Below, piece after piece: positions 17,241 to 30,700 of a stretch of DNA of 64,000 bases. Numbering within the stretch: position 1 is the stretch's first letter; each line of letters begins with the position of its first letter. The position numbers and the translations under genes are program-made. The stretch comes from Girardia tigrina (Eukaryota): assembly GCA_001938485.1 (NCBI GenBank), contig MQRK01244667.1, positions 68,150 through 132,149 on the forward strand, in the 5' to 3' direction. Under the pieces are notes generated by a model. The model saw only the letters and a program-made list of their open reading frames with translations. It was not told the DNA's origin and did not search any database.

Positions 17241-20200
17241 TTACAATGTTGAAATATCAGATTGAGTAGATTCATTTTCTTTTGCACGTCTCTCTTCTTT
17301 TTCTGATTCATTTTCATAGTCACTTGACCTATCACTTTTTTTCTTTCCTGGTACACTTAATTTAACCTCTTTTCTAGTCGAAGATTTTGATGATTTCTTA
17401 CTCCCTTCATGAACAATATATTTTGGGGTATGACTCGTTGTTGGTTCACTGTTTTTACTTACAGATTTTTTGTGACTGTAATCATAAGCAGGTTCACTGT
17501 CTTTACTTATAGACTTTTTGTGACTGTAATCATAAACATCTGATTTATTTTGATAATTTGGTGAATTTTTGTGACTATAATCACTAGCGTCTGATTTATT
17601 TTGATCATTCAGTGATTGTTTGTGACTATAGTCACTAGCATCTGATTTCCTATGGTCATTCAGTGATTTGTTGTGACTATGTTCACTACCATCTGATTTC
17701 CTATGGTCATTCAGTGATTTTTTGTTACTATATTCACTACCATCTGATTTCCTATCATCGTTCACTGATTTGTCTTGATCTTCAATGTACTCATAAATTT
17801 CATTATTTTTAAAGGATTGATCAACATTTCCTGATATGTTTTGTTTAACTTGGGTTGGAGCAATGGTTTTGCGCACATCGGAAGTTTCATCCACCCCAGT
17901 TAAACACTTATAGTCTTCCTGGAGATATGCAAATTCCTCTCTAGCTTCAATAAATTCACTTTCTTCCATTCCTTCACCAACAAACCAATGAACAAAAGAC
18001 CTTTTACTAAACAAAATATCAAATTTTGAATTAAGATTTCCAAGTTTTTGATGAAAACACGTATTATTACAGAGAAGTAAAAGACTTCTTTCAGTATCGT
18101 ATAGATGACTCTCTTTTGGTGCAATAGTAGGATGTCTATTAATACCTATTTTGTAACCTGTGGGGCACCAATCAATAAACTTAATAGATTCCTTTTTTTT
18201 AATCTCAAAAACAGCTTTATTGACTTCAGAAGGATAAACATTTCCCCGGTATTGTAAGCAGCAGGAAAGGAACTTTTCTTCATCAAAATTACATTCTAGC
18301 AATTTATTTTCAAAGGTGAAAACGTCTTTCGTTATTTGATTTGTCGAATGTAAATAATGAGCCCCCGTTTTATGGCAACATATTGGCGAATAAATGTCTA
18401 ATGGATAATGTAATCTTGGGTAAGGTATTAAATTTGTTGCAATTTGATCAAGATCGTTGTTAAGTGCATTTTCATACCGCATTGATACAGTAAAGGAGCT
18501 AAACACTTGGGCAAGCAACCTATTTATATTATTAAATGTTGGACTATTTATTTCCAATTTGTTTTGTACAACTTTAAAAATGGACTGGTTATCGTGCTGT
18601 AAACACAAATCCGTGGTATCTAAACAAGTTTTGCCAGATAACACTACATTATAAGGTTCAACGATGGCACATGATAAATGTGAGCTTGGAAGTATGGAGA
18701 ACTGCATTTTTGACCTCTTACTGTATTCAATACTTAATTGTTCCATAACCAATGATGTAAATCCAGATCCACATCCTCCACCAAAACTTTGAATGATCAT
18801 AAAACCTTGAATAGAATTACATAGGTTTGCCATATGTCGTAAAGTATCCATAAACTCTTCGAGATATGATTTACCAATTGTATAATGACCTCTGGCGAAA
18901 TTACATGACGAATCTTCAAGCCCAGAAATCAATTGATTGGGACCAAATAAGTCTCTGTATGTACCAGTGCGAATTTCATCTAAAACCATTAAACATTTGA
19001 AAATAAAGAATAATATCTTGATGAAATTTCAAAAGCAAAAGTTAATTTTTTATGAACTCTATTTTAACATATTTACAGAGGATATGAATTCATTTAGGGT
19101 ATTGACTTAAAAGAACTTCCTCTATAAACCTTATCCTATGTCTTCCTTTTTCGATTGAGGCTTTCAGCTTTCACAATTTTAATCTGTAAAATAATAAAAA
19201 AATAATGTCCTGGTAATGCTGAAACCATCTGTGAACAGGTTAATATATTATGTTATCATAATTATATTTTATATTTTAAACTTAATTGCATTTGAAGATA
19301 ATAAATTGTTGCAGAACATTCTCAAATCTCACGAAAGGACATTACATCAAAGTAGTATAAGTACGAAACAATTAGAAGTCCTAACGTTTTTAAAAGTCAA
19401 ACATATCGTTTTTGGATTTACTATCAATCCATGTTTCTAGGTGTTGTCTTAAAATATATTCCGTGAGAGTTGTGTGGAATTAATATGGCGCCGTTTATTA
19501 TGAATTACTTAATAAAAATGTTGCAATTGTAGCCGAACTTAATTGTGAACAACAACCTTCAAACATCACAAGAAAATCGAAATTAAGTAATACTTAAATT
19601 CACTATTTCAAAAGCACAGAAGAGGAAGTTTTACCGACCGAATTATATGGATTTTTTAATATAGGTCTGTCCAGAAAGTCTTGACTGATTTATAAACAAG
19701 TGAAAGATAAGCATTTATTGTTATTTTCATCATTATCTCTAATGTGTTCAAAGTATTGTCCATTGTGAGCCACGCAATTCTCCCACCGTTCTGGGAGTTT
19801 CCTAATACCTTTGGAGAAGAAATTGCGAGGTTTCTCTTCAATCTAACGCTGCAACATCACTTGAACTTCTTCTGCGGCGTTATAATTTCGTCCTCGGAGA
19901 GCGATTTTCATTGAGGAGAATAAATAAAAACGGAGGGAGCGAGGTCAGGTGAGTATGGTGGATGGGGCAATACACTGAACCCGATTTTCTGCAGCTTATT
20001 TACTGTTTGGTTGGCTGTGTGAGGCTGGCGTTATCGTGAAGGTAAGTAATTTGTTGAGCTCCTCCTCCCATAAGCTGCCTCCGCTTTTGTTGTATTGCAG
20101 CAACAAGACGATCCATCTTCTGACAGTAGATATCCACAGTAATTGTCTGTCCATGAGGGAGAATTTCCATTAGCAATACCCCTTGGTAGTCCCAAAAAAC

Positions 20201-23200
20201 TGAAATCATGTACTTTCTGGGTGTAAGCATATGACGAACTTCGAATGGAGGATCGTCTCCTTCTCCTCGCCAAGAACGATGATGTAGTGAGCCTCCATTG
20301 TCCCAATATATCCAGGATTCATCCATGGTAACTAATTATCCAAGAAAATCAAAAGCTAACAGCTCGTTGCATATTCTTGCTCTATTAGCTATTTGTTCAG
20401 GGGACAATAGATGTAGGATCCATCGATTACACAGGTACCTTTTCCCCATGTGAATGAGATGATTTCGAGCTACCTCCGGGGAAATTGCCAACTCAAGTGC
20501 TATTTGCTAACGCAATGAAAATACAACTTTCAAACAATATTACAAAATAATATTTATTTTTGAAACAATTTGTTAACTGATATTTTGAAATTAGTTTGCC
20601 TACAATAGGAAAAATTGATTATTTTTTTCCCTTTTACTTAATCATTCACATATGTATATGTTATCTATACTGTAAATATCATAGACATTTATTAATGCGT
20701 TCACTAGATACTTATAGAAGACCATCGGTCAAAACTTTCTGGACAGACCTGTAATAATGTTTAACATTAAAGTTAGTTTCACCGATTCTTTGCTTCAAAT
20801 CGGCAGATTTTTAAAAACACAAAATCTAAAAAATCGCCTGTGCGCTGGGGGCTGTTATAAATTGTGCCAGAAAACCTTTTGTTGAGTAATTGTGCTATTT
20901 AATAAATGAAACATTAAAAAATGCATAAAAGTTTGCTCCATCCCAATGTTAACCAGTTTTCAAATTATTTTGTGTAAATATTTTTGATTGCCATGGTAAA
21001 TAACATATGTACAGTGACATCTCGAATCCCCTAAAAGTACATATGTGTACCATGGTCCATTATCTACCATGAAAAATAAATTTAAATTATTGAATATTAC
21101 AATAATAAAATCACAACAATTAAAAATATAAAAAGTATATTAAGGGTCGACAAGGTTTTTATTTTGTAAATATTTTAATTCCAATTAGAGAAAAGTTGAT
21201 GATATTTTATTTATCTTATATTTTATTAAATATTTTAATATTTATATTATATTTTTATATCAAAGATATTTAATATTTTTTCGTGAAACGTTTAATTTAA
21301 TTAATCATTTTGTTAATTTCATAAAAAATAGGAAAATATCTTAGTAATTTAGGGTACAATTAACTTGTTTTAAAGGTTAACTCGTTTGTTTAAGTTGAAG
21401 AAATAAAACTTGTTAAGTGTTTTTTCACCTTTATTGGGGATATAAACGGTTTTATTAATGTTTTATTAGTGTTTTATTTGATCTTGTAAAAATAGAGTAC
21501 TAAATTTATACCCGCTGTTCTTTCGTCATTAAGATGAAAAACATTAAACTGGTTTTACTTATAAACCTAATTTGATGAATTATAAAAAAAATTATAATTT
21601 CGGATTTTTATGATTATATCTGTTATCAGTAAAAATATTAAGAAATTTTAAAAGGTATTGCTATTTCCACAGTCTTGATGAAACATAGAGGTACCTATTA
21701 AGAACACAAATATGAATTTTAATATTTTTATTATTACAATAAGTTTTATTGTCCTCAGGACAATTTTTGTCAAAGCTTTCGTAAGATTGCATCAGTCTAT
21801 CAATTAATGACTTTAATCTTATTATCTGAGCAAATGGAGAATTAAATAAATTTTTTAAATATTTACTCAAAAATTTATTGGTTAAAAATTAAAATGATTA
21901 TTAATTATTTAAAAAATATTAATTCAATTTATTTATTTAATAATTGTAAATAAAATTAATAAACTTATTTAAAATTTTACAATTATTTTAAATTAGAAAT
22001 AAATTTAAACATTACATATTTTCAGATAATAAGAATTAAAACATTAATCATCCATCTGGGTAGGAGAGACACAATTCCAAATCAACATACAACATTCAAA
22101 CACAAAATATTCCTCACAGTACCCTCTTTTTATAGGGAGGATAACGTTGTAGAATAAAATATTGAAAATTTTCAGTATTTTTAATTCTTGGAATATCTAA
22201 AATAAAAATATCGTGATGCAAGATCGAAACCAAATTTGACTACAGGGTGCCAAGTAGAATACCAAAAGATTTTATGAAAACAAAGTGTATTTAATGAAAA
22301 ACGTGATAAAAGCAAACAATTATATTTACATAAATAAGCTTGATGTCAGAGGTGTTCAAAATGTCCTCCGTCATTGCCGCAACCTTTGGTTTTATTTATG
22401 TAAATATAAATTTTATCTATTAATTCTATTGTAAACACTATGAGTTCTGGTCATTTTACTCAACAGAAACAGTTGCACCATGTACACACTGATCCAGTGT
22501 GTCTACATTTCCTTTAGAGTTGTTATAATCTAGTATTATTTGAAGTTTTTTGTCCTCCCGGCCACTATGTTCCGCATCGTGATGCACACTAAAGAGTAAA
22601 ATAACCGTCTTGTTCTTTTTCGGCACGTAAGAATAGAGGGCCAATGCAACGGTAAAGCCGAACAATGACGTATAAACTTTCCGGCTATTATTCTTCTTCA
22701 TAAATAGAGGAGGAATCTGAGATTTATTAGCTCTAAATGTGCCAAGTTAAGTAAGACCGTTGTTCAATAAACTGCGTGCCAAGGATACAGATGTAATAAA
22801 ATATCTGTAGTGATATTGTGACCACTGTCAGACAATGGAATGTCAATCGTTTTAACAACACGCTGGGCTAGGCCAACTTCTGTAAGAATGCCTTCTTTAT
22901 CAAGGTAAACTAGAGCATTGACGACATAAGTAGTATTGGTACCAGTGAGCTAAAAGATTTTATTCCCATTCTGATCCGACTTAGAAGCTTTGCACATTCG
23001 AAAGGGACATCTTCATTGGAAGCCAAGCAGCTTGTGCAATTAGCTCCATAAACATAGCACATTCGACGGTAGGTTTATTAAAATTTAATTTAGAGTCAAT
23101 ACAAAGATTTATTATAAAGTAATAAAGTAAATTTTAATTTTGATGGAAATATTTAATGGAAGTAAAATAAACAGGAACATAAAGTTTAATATTTAATTTT

Positions 23201-26200
23201 TGAAATGAAAATAAACGAAACTATTATTTTGTAACTTTAATTTTAATATAATTTTAAAACGACTAAATTGAAGTAAATTAAAATGTGATTTTAATTCTTT
23301 TTTTTGAAAATATGATTTTATAGAAATGGAAATGCAATTGAGAAACGATTAAATTAAAATTGTAAAATACAACGGAAATTTAATAAAAATCGAAACAAAA
23401 TCTTTGTGACAAAATTTTAATAAAATACCTTTATAAGAAATGGAAATTCAATTGAGAAACGATTAAATTAAAATTGTAAAATACAACGGAAATTTAATAA
23501 AAAACGAAATAAAATCTTTGTGACAAAATTTTAATAAAATACCTTTACAAGACGAGTAGAAAATTTAAATTCTTAATAAATAAAATAATATTATCTATAT
23601 ATATTTTTATTTATAATGGTTTGTGTAAAAAAAGAAAGTGCTTAGGTTCCTCGAAAATATTTGTTTAAAAAACTATTTGTGATAGAAATAAATTTTGGTG
23701 TTGAGTTTAAATTTTGAATCCGATCCCAATAACTGCCAATTTTTATTTCTATTCCATTTTGAGACTTTAACAAATTGCTGTGTGAACGAGTGGTTGGAGA
23801 AACGCAGCACAATAATTCTCTTCTCTCCTGCCAGCGCATGCAAATCACAATGTGCATAAAGTTTATACAGTAGAACCTCTCCATAGTCTCACTTTCTATA
23901 GTCTCCCTCTCCATTGAGTCATAGTATTCATCAAGGTATTAACGCTGCCTTGTCTTCAATTGACCTTCTGCTATTTATAGTAACACATGATTTTTGCCAT
24001 TCTTTGGTTGTCTTTCTATGGTCATGTCAATTTAGTATGCTCAACTTATGTTAATGCATGTGCTATTTTCTCTCTATTTGCTATCAGAGGAAGTATGTGT
24101 GTGTATTTGGATAGCAGGGGCAGGTGAAAAATTGCATACAGTGTTTTTATTAAAAAGTGTGTATGTACTTCTGTCATTTATTTTTCTCTATCTAGTGTAA
24201 AAATTCATGCACTCACAGAACTTGAGGGAACATATTATTGGATACACCTCATTAAAGTTGTCTGATAATCTAGTTGACTTAAAATGATCTTTGAGACTGA
24301 GTGATAAAACATGAATCAGGTTAAGGTCAGCCCACGCCCTCAATGATGTGTATGTGTGAGTGCATGTAGTTTTTATTGTGTGTGTCCATTATTTGTTTTA
24401 GTGTTTCAATCACAAGCAACCCTTCTAGTTCTGCTGAGACTATTCGATTACTTGGCGTCCAGTTTCGCTGTTGCAATGGATAAATTCCTTATTCGAAGGG
24501 CAAAGATTATATCGTCTACTAATTTATTAACGTCTGTCACTAATTTAACTACATACTCAACGTCGGCCGCTATTCCAACTGCATCCTCATCATCTGCCGT
24601 AATTTCAACGTCAACAACTTAATGACCAAGACAGCCATGACATTCCCTAAAGCATTGAAGAAAAATAAAGGAGGACAAAACTTCCAGCCCGACTGGCTAA
24701 CACGGTTCCCATGGTTACAATATTCGACCGAACATGATGCTGCATTTTGTTTTGCCTGTTGTATCTTCCAGAATCTAGGAAGTAAAGAGATAGCTTACAG
24801 GAGCACTGGTTTTAGAAATTTGAAATACGCTTTAGACAAGAACAAAGGCTTTTCGCAACATGAAGCCAGTATGGTTCACGTGCGTGCCATGTCTATGTGG
24901 AACGAACGGGAACAGAGATTGCAATACAGTCTCACGGTATCAACTGTATTAAATGACAAAGATCTTGAGGATAATCGACTTTATGTCAAATCAATCACAG
25001 AAATCATTCAAATCCTCGCATTAAATGAATAAGCATTTAGAGGGCGTTATTACATAGAAGATAGTGAGGCACGTTCTTTTTTCAGAAACTAATTTGAATT
25101 TATTCTTCGTAAAGACGCGAAATTATCCGAATGAAGTCAACATATTCCAAAAAACGCGAGCTACCTCTTATGTGATATTCAAAATGAAATGCTCAAAATT
25201 ATGGGTGATATTGTCCGTGAATGGATCGTAAATGACACCAACATAGCTGACGTTCCATGGTTCACACTTTTAGAATATGGAACAAGGGACAAGTCAAACC
25301 GTGAAGATGTGGCGATCGGAATTCGATATGTGAAAGACGGAAAGGCGTGCGAGTCGTTGTTGTCGATTGATTTAGATGCAGCGTCCTTTACAGATTTGGC
25401 TCTTGAAACGCTATAAAAACTGTTTAGATGAGAACTGTTGATTGAGTCAGTGCTATGATGGGGCTAGCGTAATGAGCGGACAACAAGGTGGCGTTCAAGC
25501 TAGAATCCAAACAATGCTGAAACGCAGGGTTCCTTCCGTTCACTGCAACAATCATCGACTACACCTTGTCATTGTGAAAACCACGTCCCACATCCCTGCT
25601 GTGAATCAATTTTTTGAACAATGCTCAATGTTCCGTGAATTCTTGCCCCATCCCAAAATTTAAGCTCTATATGAAGGCAAAACAATTCCACGTCTTCTGC
25701 AGCAAAGCTGGTCAGGGCATTTGGCTATTACCAATGTTATTCATGCCAATTATACTCCGATTCTCGATGTTTTGATGGATATTCCATCTGGATTCTTTGC
25801 TGGTGATGATGTGGCAATAAATACACTTATTATAGCAAACACTGAAAAATTGACGTTTTCATGAATAATCACAGCCACCATTGAATAATTACCTAATGTC
25901 AGTAAGGTGAACTATTATGACGAACAGCACAGAAATAAATGACACTTCCATTAACGTAACACTATTTATATGGGGGCTTAAAATAATGATAGAGCGATAA
26001 AAATAGTGATTGTCTTCAAAGTTAAACCAAAAAAAAACGGTAGGACAAGCAAAGATATTAACATTTAAAGTTCAATGATGATATTTTGTCAGCGGTGCAC
26101 AGTATCAGAGTTAAGTAATCAATTGCTCAAAGTCATGCGAATTGGACATAATGAATAGACTGGTTGAAGCTATTGTTATTAAGACATGTAGATTTATGAG

Positions 26201-26969
26201 GGGTTACAAAAATTAAAAAAAAACAATTTATATAAATAAAATTTGAGAAATAATACGTTCATTTTCTTATCAGTCGATACAAATTCATAAGATCTTATGT
26301 AACACTCTTTCATTTTTTTTCTATTGGTAAATTTTAACAAACATAAACTTATTATATTTGTTCGATCCATTCTGGGGTAACTCGCAATGACAATCGTATG
26401 AAGCAAGGTAAACAGATTTTGTAGAATAAATGTCGATTTAGACAAGAATCAAATGTCAACAGGACACTATCGATAGAAATGCCGAACCACATTTGGTGAC
26501 GCAAAAAAACTTGCATATAGACGAATTACATATAAGCAATACCTACCGTATATGACTCAATTTTGTACCAGGCAACATATTACAGTTTTTTGTAAGAAAT
26601 TTAAATTAAAAAAAATCAACAAAATTTTCGAAATGACTGTACCTATAACGCTGGGTTCTAAATCTATACTGATCGTTCTCGGTACAAATTTATTATGTGA
26701 AACTTCCATAAAAATGCTTTCAGATGATAGAGAATGTGCAGAAGGTTCTGATAAAGTCGAGAATCCATTAGTACTAATTCCATGTTCCAAGCACATTAAC
26801 TCCCAAACGGCATTTGAGATTTGTACTCCAGCTTGTCCGATATTTACGCAAATGAGTTCTTTCTGGAAGACAAATATTTCAAAATCTTCCTTCAGGTACT
26901 TTATTTATTGAAAATAAAAGTTTCTCTTTTAATAATTATGTATATTATGTCATTTATAAAACTAACCAT
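17241..26969 (-). CDS. Divergent alpha-tubulin, about 653 aa, with long repetitive C-terminal tail; exons 26967-26969 (ATG), 26643-26862, 17241-18979
   Basis: GQAGVQ, CLEHGI, DLEPSVI|DEIRTG, GGGCGSG, NLIPYPR, FVHWFVGEGMEE. The intron after the ATG and the phase-1 intron at VI|D are typical animal alpha-tubulin positions; phases join in frame. Confidence 0.93.
17430..17772 (-). repeat. Coding minisatellite (51/48-nt units) in the tubulin tail
   Basis: KSLNDHRKSDxSxxSHK-type 17-aa unit five times, then two shorter variants. Confidence 0.9.
19662..20751 (-). mobile_element. Decayed mariner element in tubulin intron 2
   Basis: TIRs AGGTCTGTCCAGAAAG / CTTTCTGGACAGACCTG, TA TSD; WIxHLL, MDESWIY, HDNA, HPPYSPDLAPS motifs. 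Confidence 0.92.
22440..23040 (-). mobile_element. piggyBac transposase fragment
   Basis: SYVPKKNKTVILL..H, IILDYNNSKGNVDTLDQ, GHNITTD, RCPFRM. Confidence 0.85.
23323..23550. repeat. Tandem duplication of a ~114-bp unit
   Basis: GAAATGGAAAT..CAATTGAGAAACGATTAAATT...AAAATACCTTTA twice, nearly identical. Confidence 0.9.
24475..25815 (+). mobile_element. hAT (ZMYM1-like) transposase pseudogene
   Basis: TTF zinc finger (FPWLQYS..DAAFCFAC), DUF4371-like region, SQCYDGASVMSG..GVQ, VHCNNHRLHL; several stops. Confidence 0.9.
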
Positions 26970-27777: not shown

Positions 27778-30700
27778 ATGCTTTTTTGTTATTCACGTTG
27801 TTGTTTAAATGCAAAAGTATGCGCGTTGTAAATCGTGAAAAGTTTAAAAATTGTGAATATAAATAAACTTTAGAAAGATCTTTCTGTTGAGTATATAGTA
27901 ATTGTTGCGCTCGTTGTGACTCCCCAACAAAATACAAATCTAATCATGCAACAATCAATTCATCAACCAATCTTTTCAACTAGAAACGCAAACCCAAATT
28001 CGAATAATATCTTGAATCAAAGAAAAAAACACTTTTTTGTAATATTAATTAATAAAAAACTTTTTCTATTTTTCTATATTCAATTTTTCATCTGTGTTTT
28101 TTCCAGGAAAGTCTTTTCAATATTTATTGTTCAATTGACTATTTTAATGTAACGAGTTTGTTTTATTATACCAAATAAATTATTTTCGTCGGAATTTTTT
28201 TTAAAACGCCGAATTTTTAAATCTTATTCAACCAGTATGGCGTTTTTCTTACTCACGGCGTTTCCAGACGACCAGCGATTATTACCAAATTATTTAAGTG
28301 AACATCACCTTAATAGCAATATATAGTATCTAATAAAAATTATTTTATAAAATTTTGCTTTAATTAATTAGAGTAAAATAGAATTATTTACTCTTGTTTT
28401 AGTAAATATAAATTATATATAAACAATTAAATTAAAAATAAATAAAAGATAAATAATTACAGGGTTTCCCACCCCAATTTGACATCGTTTCATTAATTTT
28501 TGACATTGTGTCAATAATTTTTGACATTGATTCACTAATTTTTGACATTGATTAATTAATTTTTGACATTTCTAAATTGTTTTATAATTTTACTATAATT
28601 TAATATTATTTTTAATGGATTATGTCTCGAAAGAATTCCACGGTTTCTAACGCAGATCGCGAAAGAATCATTGCTTGCTATGAAAACCAAAAAGAGATTG
28701 CTGAAATCTCTTCAACCTTAAATATCAAACGAACAACAGTGTATCAAGTTATATCAACAATCAAGACGTGTAAACGCAATCAAAAGAGGATCTCCTTCTA
28801 GAAAAAAGTTGGGTGATAATGAAATTAATGCTGTTAGAAGTTGGATTGATGTTGATAGTACGCTTTCACTTAATCAAATTGCTGTACGGATAAATGAAGA
28901 TTTCGGTGTTTCAGTATCTAAATCCACAGTTGGGAGATTGATCGAGTCTTTTAATTATTCATTAAAAAGACTTCAGCTTATTCCTGAACGCCGAAACGCA
29001 GAAAATACAATCCAAATAAGGAGAGAATATGCGCTTGAGTTTTGTTCATTACCTGCGATTTTTTCAGGAGGAAATTATTTTCTTAGATGAAGTAGGTTTT
29101 AGCGTGTCTTCGAGATCTTCACGTGGTCGTTCCTTGAAGGGAACACCAGCGGTAGCTATTGTTCCTGCTATACGAACTCGAAATATTTCAATTTGCTGCG
29201 CAATGAACAGAAACGGAATACTATTTTATAAAACAAGCACGCGCGCATTCAATGGGGAAATATTTATCGAGTTTTTAAAGGAACTTAAAGACAAAATACT
29301 CGAAGAAAGGTTGAAACATATTGTTTTGATCATGGACAATGTGCGCTTTCACCATATGAATGAAGTTAAGGCTCTGCTCGATAGTTTTAATTATAGGATT
29401 TTATACCTCCCTCCTTGTTCGCCTTTCAGTAAATATTGTAATAACATTAGAAAAATAGTCATTTCAAACAAATGAGCCTTTGATTTTACACTAGTATTTT
29501 TAACAAATAACAATTAAAATACAATTAATCACTATACGAAAATAAATATATTACCATTTAAATTATTATTTTAAAGTTAATAAAATCAATGAAAATTATT
29601 TTTATATAATGGATAAGCTTATTCAATTTTACTACAGATGCAAAAAATGTTTTTGATTTTGATAAAACATTTGGCATTGTCATATCGCTTTGAAAGTTGT
29701 AGAGATATCAGACATTGAAATTAGATTATGTTTAAAGTTTCAGTTCAGTAACTGTAAGAAATCGGGATTTACAGTGTGAAGATGCCCAGAAACAGACAAT
29801 ATTACAAGTAGAAAAGAGGTCTACATGGTGGTGTTAGTATGGTAGGATTAAAAGTAACAGAAACTACCACAATACTAAGAGTTTCAACAAGTTCTATCTC
29901 ACAAATGACTGCGTTGGTAAGAGTAAGAAGAACCCATTTGCAAAGAATAGTTCTGATCGAAAGTCGAAGTTGAGAGGCCGTTGGATTTTAAACAGAATCA
30001 CTAGAGAATATCACAAGGACACTGTTCTTAAAATCGATGTAGAACTTACTAAACACTTACAGAACCTAGTTTCTAAAAGCACTGTTCGTCGGAGATGCAC
30101 AAATCTGGATTCGATGGAAGATCTAAAATTAGAAAACCTATGCACTGAAAGAAAAATGTTTCAAAGCTTTTAAAGTGGTGTAGAAACCTGTAGAATAGGT
30201 TCCTTAAGCAATGAAGAAATGTAGTGCTCTCTGATAAATCATCATTTCACCTATTTGCAACCTCCGGCGAGGATAAATTTTTAAACACCGAAAGACGCAT
30301 TTCATCCAGCCTGCCTTCCCTCAACCATTTAACGCGACGAGAGTTCTGTGATAATATATATGCAGTTTTTTGAAAATCCATAGGGCTAATAATTTTCCCT
30401 CATGTAAGAATTTTAAATCGAGACTATTTAGAATTTACCGCAACCAAGTTCATCCAATGGTTTGAGAACTGTTCCGGAGGGAAACTTTATCTTTCAAGAT
30501 CGTAATACACTAATTTATACAGTATAAATTGTTAAAGAATAACACGAGGAACATTCTAAGGAAGTCGAGCATCGCATCTGGACACAACAATTCCTAGATA
30601 TCAACATTATTGACTATTTATGGTCGATTTAAGAGATTAAAGTAAGAAGTCGATTTCCACTACCACTGTCTTTTAAGAAAAACCTGAGAATGTTTTAACT

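Follow-up and report, generated by a model that had tools for sequence, protein, structure and literature searches.

Glutamine in place of the catalytic glutamate 254 in a divergent alpha-tubulin gene of Girardia tigrina and in a flatworm paralogue family, candidate GTP-locked tubulins of sperm

The window (the whole stretch of Girardia tigrina DNA that was analysed, 64,000 nt) carries on its minus strand an alpha-tubulin-like gene of three exons, encoding 653 amino acids in a 654-codon frame with no internal stop. The coding part of exon 1, predicted from sequence, would be an ATG (26967..26969) followed by a GTTAGT donor and a GT-AG intron of 104 nt. Exon 2 (26643..26862, minus strand) encodes residues 2-74 (KEL...DLEPSVI), with K2 replacing R2 and without K40. 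A second GT-AG intron of 7663 nt (18980..26642, minus strand), which splits the D76 codon as G and AT, as does an intron of paralogue L007, separates it from exon 3 (17241..18979, minus strand). Exon 3 runs from D76 to the stop, lies in a minus-strand open frame of 595 codons (19028-17241), and supplies the remaining GTPase domain, the C-terminal domain, and a tail.

At canonical alpha-254 the catalytic Glu is lost: the codon is CAA, Gln (18444..18446, minus strand; residue 253 of the window protein). The segment ENALNNDLDQIATNL aligns without gaps to canonical DGALNVDLTEFQTNL; D251, T257, and N258 are retained around Q254, and Asp stands at 253. The second-best PDB sequence match of the window gene, 9f3b_A, also has Gln there (DLTQFQTNL). 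An earlier note on this DNA had described a Q codon at 18444-18446, a frame intact across three exons, and a protein with MKEL, GGGCGSG, and EDSSCN and with neither K40 nor a terminal EEY. Each of these details holds in the joined model; the description missed the 220-aa repeat-bearing tail and the multi-gene family to which the gene belongs.

We give negligible probability to an artefact of assembly or base calling and to a pseudogene. The gene is single-copy in the assembly and no allele contig was found, but the 654-codon frame is intact, the introns are GT-AG, and the same motif stands in four orthologue sequences. Two of these are database orthologues (P0005, 74%; P0010, 72%), and two are Schmidtea mediterranea transcript models (SMEST010934001.1 and SMEST010930001.1, co-orthologues of the window gene with NNDLDQIATNL). 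All four carry D[LI]DQIATNL and GGGCGSG, and this recurrence excludes chance as well as the base-call error that the earlier note had raised. No RNA run that carries the sequence is among the 15 listed sequencing runs, and 6 of the 15 contain at least half of the sampled words.

Several repeats lie in or derive from this region. Intron 2 holds what we take, by motifs, to be a decayed mariner-like transposase (19656-20335, minus strand), and two overlapping frames upstream of the gene (28722-29475, plus strand) resemble by motifs what is presumably a Tc1/IS630-type transposase. A 200-nt piece of exon 3 occurs in a dispersed repeat family at about ten places, 88-96% alike (source, window 18573-18320; copies, L206:1501-1702, L207:636-837, L208:1501-1708, and L209:1501-1710), likely through transposon capture; a 45-nt deletion in the copies (18462-18418) removes the codon-254 region. 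Elsewhere in the genome, many broken nuclear copies of mitochondrial COI are present (31 matches; L121-L124).

The window protein matches the Pfam Tubulin and Tubulin_C domains (E 2e-28 and 1e-28), and the exon 3 model has the tubulin fold (Foldseek E 2e-42; mean pLDDT, 65.5 overall and about 80-95 over most of the core). Identity is 45-51% to the best alpha-tubulin versus about 30% to beta-tubulin, and the protein aligns to alpha-tubulin without a gap across the alpha-type S9-S10 insert; judged from sequence, it belongs by descent to the alpha-tubulin lineage. Among the canonical-alpha features tested, D251 is present and E254, GGGTGSG, MREC, K40, and terminal EEY are all absent. The tubulin signature reads GGGCGSG (T145C; 18762..18782, minus strand), common to all four orthologue sequences examined, and the N-site loop reads EDSSCN for EDAANN (A99S, A100S, N101C; 18900..18917, minus strand). 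N-site changes are T145C, N101C, T179C, and Y224F. The protein ends in a low-complexity tail of 220 aa (17244..17903, minus strand; S 43, K 31, D 23, E 17, N 17; net charge, -1) that is predicted to be disordered. Five tandem repeats of 51 nt (17 aa) each (17515..17771, minus strand; 86% matches) are followed there by a near-duplication of 48 nt (17443-17535, minus strand), and the terminus, STQSDISTL, is similar to that of orthologue P0005 (STESDISTI).

For the genome-wide family, the best 150 of 1130 and the best 114 of 420 candidates were scored and 120 loci were fetched, so that family counts are lower bounds. Exact duplicates, near-identical haplotypes, fragments, and broken copies were removed and L086, L108, and L109 left out, which gave at least 60 alpha rows. 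Residue 254 among 60 rows is E in 24, Q in 15, V in 8, H in 5, S in 2, a gap in 2, and A, I, D, or N in 1 each, with E254 absent in 36. Three of the five H254 rows are partial and may represent one or two genes; Q/H254 paralogues number about 18-20, and canonical E254 alpha genes about ten. Divergent alpha paralogues are 38-58% identical to the canonical protein, and paralogue matches to named proteins are 96% (Dugesia ryukyuensis) and 82% (Schmidtea polychroa). COI pieces of this genome translate under the mitochondrial code of flatworms, which with these matches indicates a planarian, likely a dugesiid. A second family marker, Q318 (18252..18254, minus strand), occurs in 31 of 32 clade rows and in 0 of the 43 non-Q/H rows of the genome. 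Q/H254 rows also share L398 and F/Y399; the window gene carries the whole set. These rows group together with SH-aLRT support of 99 (25 rows) and 98 (32 rows), flukes excluded. An AU test carries no weight, because its unconstrained tree came out 50 log units behind the constrained one. Expansion of planarian alpha-tubulins has already been published: the S. mediterranea count is 62 alpha versus 8 beta genes (PMC12579930), and our by-eye count of Table S1 there found Q or H at 254 in at least 12 of 53 alpha rows.

Other divergent tubulins were seen alongside. A second well-supported alpha group shows V, A, or a one-residue deletion where E254 would stand (L068-L072, L074-L076, L080, L084-L086, and L089). 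Its longest tails reach about 730 aa, it has counterparts in S. mediterranea, and one D. ryukyuensis testis gene maps to it. E254-retaining divergent alphas (L069, L077, L078, L023, L088, L091, and L082) have tails of 70-570 aa, and most have orthologues elsewhere at 75-95% identity. Divergent beta-tubulins L115, L116, L117, and L119 (51-73% to canonical over aligned parts, with altered nucleotide-site loops) are candidate partners of divergent alphas. No compensation on the beta side was seen at the canonical lysine, which is kept in 7 of 7 readable beta loci aligned over 240-260; one further locus has a stop beside the lysine, and five divergent or partial beta loci fell outside the alignment.

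Genes with both Q254 and Q318 occur in the planarians D. ryukyuensis, S. polychroa, and S. mediterranea. Flukes have them as well: a profile search of 50% representatives returned a Fasciolopsis cluster, and a search with that cluster returned Fasciola gigantica, Echinostoma caproni, Opisthorchis viverrini, O. felineus, Paragonimus skrjabini, Calicophoron daubneyi, and one further protein. All 8 of 8 fluke proteins (seven named species) carry Q254 and Q318, in a motif near FESSLNADLTQLETNL. Support for the fluke-planarian join is moderate, 85/90 with one fluke and 56/96 with eight; once columns 254 and 318 are taken out, the two groups meet at a polytomous node that also holds three E254 genes. 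From these alignments and trees, a common origin of the fluke and planarian Q254 genes is likely. Q254 without Q318 stands in Sparganum, Tetrahymena, and a few other proteins as separate occurrences.

Metagenome scans found no relative carrying the window gene itself, and an ESM Atlas search returned generic tubulin clusters. Among 80 metagenomic alpha-tubulins from a profile search, residue 254 was E in 76, S in 2, A in 2, and Q in none. Four metagenomic proteins that are 82-86% identical to canonical (L193, L199, L194, and L198) carry Ser or Ala at this site (DMTSFQTNL, DMTAFQTNL) and appear from these residues to be near-canonical natural losses of E254 in other eukaryotes.

Site 254 changes slowly within the family. 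Over 32 sequences it takes 2 parsimony steps (tree length 11) versus a mean of 7.3, and its states are Q or H only, never E; the flanking sites 253, 255, and 256 take 10, 7, and 13 steps. Columns with at most 2 steps make up 26% of 359, and site 254 is thus not uniquely conserved. R243, T257, N258, L259, P261, and P263 are invariant across the 32 Q/H254 sequences. In 21 of 21 paralogue pairs, pS (0.68-0.88) exceeds pN (0.13-0.40); dS between these paralogues is saturated, so only pN against pS is quoted. The window gene differs from P0005 at 8 of 97 conserved and 54 of 152 variable columns, and from P0010 at 5 of 96 and 67 of 152. With pS far above pN and differences that spare conserved columns, a dN/dS near 1, another objection that the earlier note had foreseen, is excluded. 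On sequence evidence, the window gene is intact and constrained and sits in a multi-gene family sharing Q254.

Selection might instead have been relaxed after the family expanded, with Q254 going back to one C/G change and carried along since then without meaning. We think this very unlikely. All divergent paralogues do evolve fast, E-to-Q needs one base change, and we count in its favor that testis genes often diverge fast; against this, synonymous sites are saturated while 254 stays Q/H in triclads and flukes, with both CAA and CAG in use, and the sites that flank it are free to vary.

Interfaces and N-site positions were scored with residue lists that we assume to be correct. Over 17 Q/H254 rows, mean identity to canonical alpha is 0.67 at the intradimer face, 0.61 at the interdimer face, 0.53 overall, and 0.42 on the lateral face, which indicates that the longitudinal faces of Q/H254 alphas are better conserved than the whole protein and the lateral face worse. 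For the window gene the values in the same order are 0.52, 0.57, 0.47, and 0.27, and its N-site identity is 0.52; the clade ranges up to 0.95 (N-site) and 0.62 (lateral). It retains 18 of 27 N-site positions, versus 24 of 27 in P0124, P0127, and P0084. By these measures the window paralogue sits at the divergent end of the Q/H254 family.

Since its N-site and lateral surfaces are eroded, a non-polymerising role keeps some weight for the window paralogue. The earlier note had mentioned such a tubulin; the protein could be a non-polymerising or end-capping scaffold or cap with the tubulin fold, for example in the central core of a 9+'1' axoneme, with Q254 kept for a new contact. The 220-aa tail and the excess of alpha over beta genes in S. 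mediterranea agree with this, as does the repeated, independent replacement of E254 in the divergent paralogues (by V, A, I, S, N, or a gap), which also fits a general loss of lattice function. Both longitudinal faces and H12 (GEGMEE) are nevertheless conserved above background, T257, N258, and P261 do not vary, and the N-site is nearly intact in P0124, P0127, and P0084; we regard the role as rather improbable.

Hydrolysis of GTP triggered by alpha-E254 drives dynamic instability. E254 reaches over the interdimer interface and, as a direct base, takes a proton from the lytic water that attacks beta-bound GTP; a salt bridge of alpha-R2, a position occupied by K in the window protein, is also implicated in the mechanism (PMC10319017). 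Human alphaE254Q microtubules contain GTP throughout and undergo no catastrophes, hydrolysis being abolished (PMC11893814). In yeast, E254A is lethal and E254D slows hydrolysis four-fold (PMC7018511); the lethality argues that Q254 alphas serve a non-mitotic cell type. A Q254 alpha might alternatively be a minority lattice component that tunes hydrolysis, not abolishing it, with tail display as its main job and partial activity provided by D253 and D251 or by canonical neighbours. D253, an acid adjoining site 254, is found in 18 of 32 clade rows (window gene included) and D251 in most, the E254D enzyme is merely four-fold slower, and about ten canonical E254 alphas share the genome. As D253 is missing from 14 of 32 rows and from 8 of 8 fluke proteins, and human Q254 tubulin is dead although D251 is intact (PMC11893814), we hold tuning to be distinctly unlikely.

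Evidence on expression comes from relatives. Two D. ryukyuensis transcripts, TR27538 and TR45012, are top sexual-worm alpha-tubulins localised to the testis (log fold change, 14.6 and 13.8; PMC6467871). Their primers (PMC6467871 supplement) translate into LPIHPSP and AVWQRL, best matched by the A254 gene L089 and its relative P0269, and into RGHFTV, LAQTT, and GEGMEEG, best matched by the Q254 subgroup L035/P0087, a mapping made on peptides of 5-7 residues. Another alpha-tubulin is 2774-fold enriched in sexual worms (PMC12654950). In asexual S. mediterranea, the Q254 gene dd_50311 has 0-9 reads per library, and several canonical tubulins in the same libraries have hundreds to tens of thousands; dd_61931 (alpha.30) was not among the matches listed from Table S2. 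Several Fasciola alpha-tubulins are testis associated (PMC11484910); in the portion of that source covered, no link could be drawn between testis marker D915_001685 and the Q254 gene, and no testis-associated Fasciola alpha was tied to Q254. The accessible text of PMC6743461, PMC10002865, PMC3224759, and PMC5544531 has nothing on Q254 isotypes. Taken together, these data suggest, indirectly, testis expression of Q254 relatives of the window gene.

Digenean sperm contain two 9+'1' axonemes and cortical microtubules (PMC10295390), and the cytoplasmic microtubules of Haematoloechus sperm were described in 1970 as atypical and relatively stable; their wall is helical and has an 80-A repeat (PMC2107960). 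We favor, at somewhat better than an even chance, a GAP-dead flatworm alpha-tubulin family for hyperstable sperm microtubules, because this substitution blocks hydrolysis in the human protein, paralogues and other species conserve the residue, and the relatives look testis expressed. The Q254 alpha would pair with beta-tubulin, and the dimer would co-assemble into sperm microtubules; the alpha subunit would dock on beta yet supply no base, so that hydrolysis on the neighbouring beta would not be triggered and the lattice would remain GTP bound and resist shrinking. Expression would be restricted to the testis, the protein would sit in the sheath of cortical microtubules or in the flagella of sperm, and the long disordered tail might be a built-in spacer or linker. 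The earlier note's suggestion of a hydrolysis-deficient isotype for hyperstable structures such as sperm is thus the best-supported reading, with the amendment that the gene is not a single isotype and is one of about 18-20 Q/H254 paralogues. More tentatively, and as something we would sooner doubt than assert, ancient dedicated GTP-locked alphas may build the stable, helical-walled cortical microtubules of planarian and fluke sperm, and perhaps further parts of the 9+'1' sperm skeleton, with no dynamic instability. The same tentative reading would have at least one such gene per fluke and about twenty in planarians, with tails varied as built-in linkers.

The planarian alpha expansion and a predicted GAP-dead, long-tailed alpha in Toxoplasma are already known. 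A literature search, with most subscription journals and the original planarian tubulin papers beyond its reach, turned up no paper describing flatworm tubulins that have lost E254, and within that scope the flatworm Q254 family is apparently unreported. To our knowledge, every GTP-locked microtubule known to date was engineered in the laboratory. If the favored reading is true, a conserved natural animal family would show cellular use of a permanent GTP lattice, could account for part of the planarian 62-gene alpha expansion, and would make the fluke gene a parasite-specific fertility protein. Such a family would also be a candidate molecular basis of the stable, atypical microtubules seen in flatworm sperm (PMC2107960).

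Canonical alpha (TUBA1B; L048 here) shares with the window protein the Pfam domains, the fold, the gap-free core, D251, GQAG, DLEP, WCPTG, and GEGMEE at 47% identity; the window protein differs in Q254, T145C, N101C, K2, the lack of K40 and EEY, and the 220-aa tail. S. polychroa Q7Z1L8 (presumably SpTub-1) and D. ryukyuensis A7M6D9, reportedly testis-specific divergent tubulins, belong to the same family with Q254 and Q318. They group with paralogues L049 (82%) and L054 (96%) and differ from the window gene as other paralogues with canonical GGGTGSG and shorter tails. Divergent alpha-like Q23WP5 of Tetrahymena thermophila also has Q254 but has M318 and falls outside the flatworm group, and its Q254 is likely independent. 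The direct co-orthologues of the window gene, S. mediterranea alpha.30 and alpha.34, have NNDLDQIATNL and GGGCGSG and are listed by BLAST name, with function not given, in the rows of Table S1 covered (PMC12579930). Engineered human alpha-E254Q (PDB 9f3b; PMC11893814) has the identical substitution with D251 retained. It is one mutation in a canonical protein, whereas about half of the residues differ in the window protein, so what the engineered protein does in the lattice may not hold here. Toxoplasma alpha3-tubulin and its coccidian homologues, for which GAP loss and stabilised polymers are predicted, resemble the window gene in a natural Q/H254, an acid at 253, and an unusually long tail (PMC10056924). 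They differ in having T for D251, an MPREI insertion, and one gene per genome, against D251, MKEL, and about 20 paralogues here, and common ancestry of the window gene with coccidian alpha3 is unlikely.
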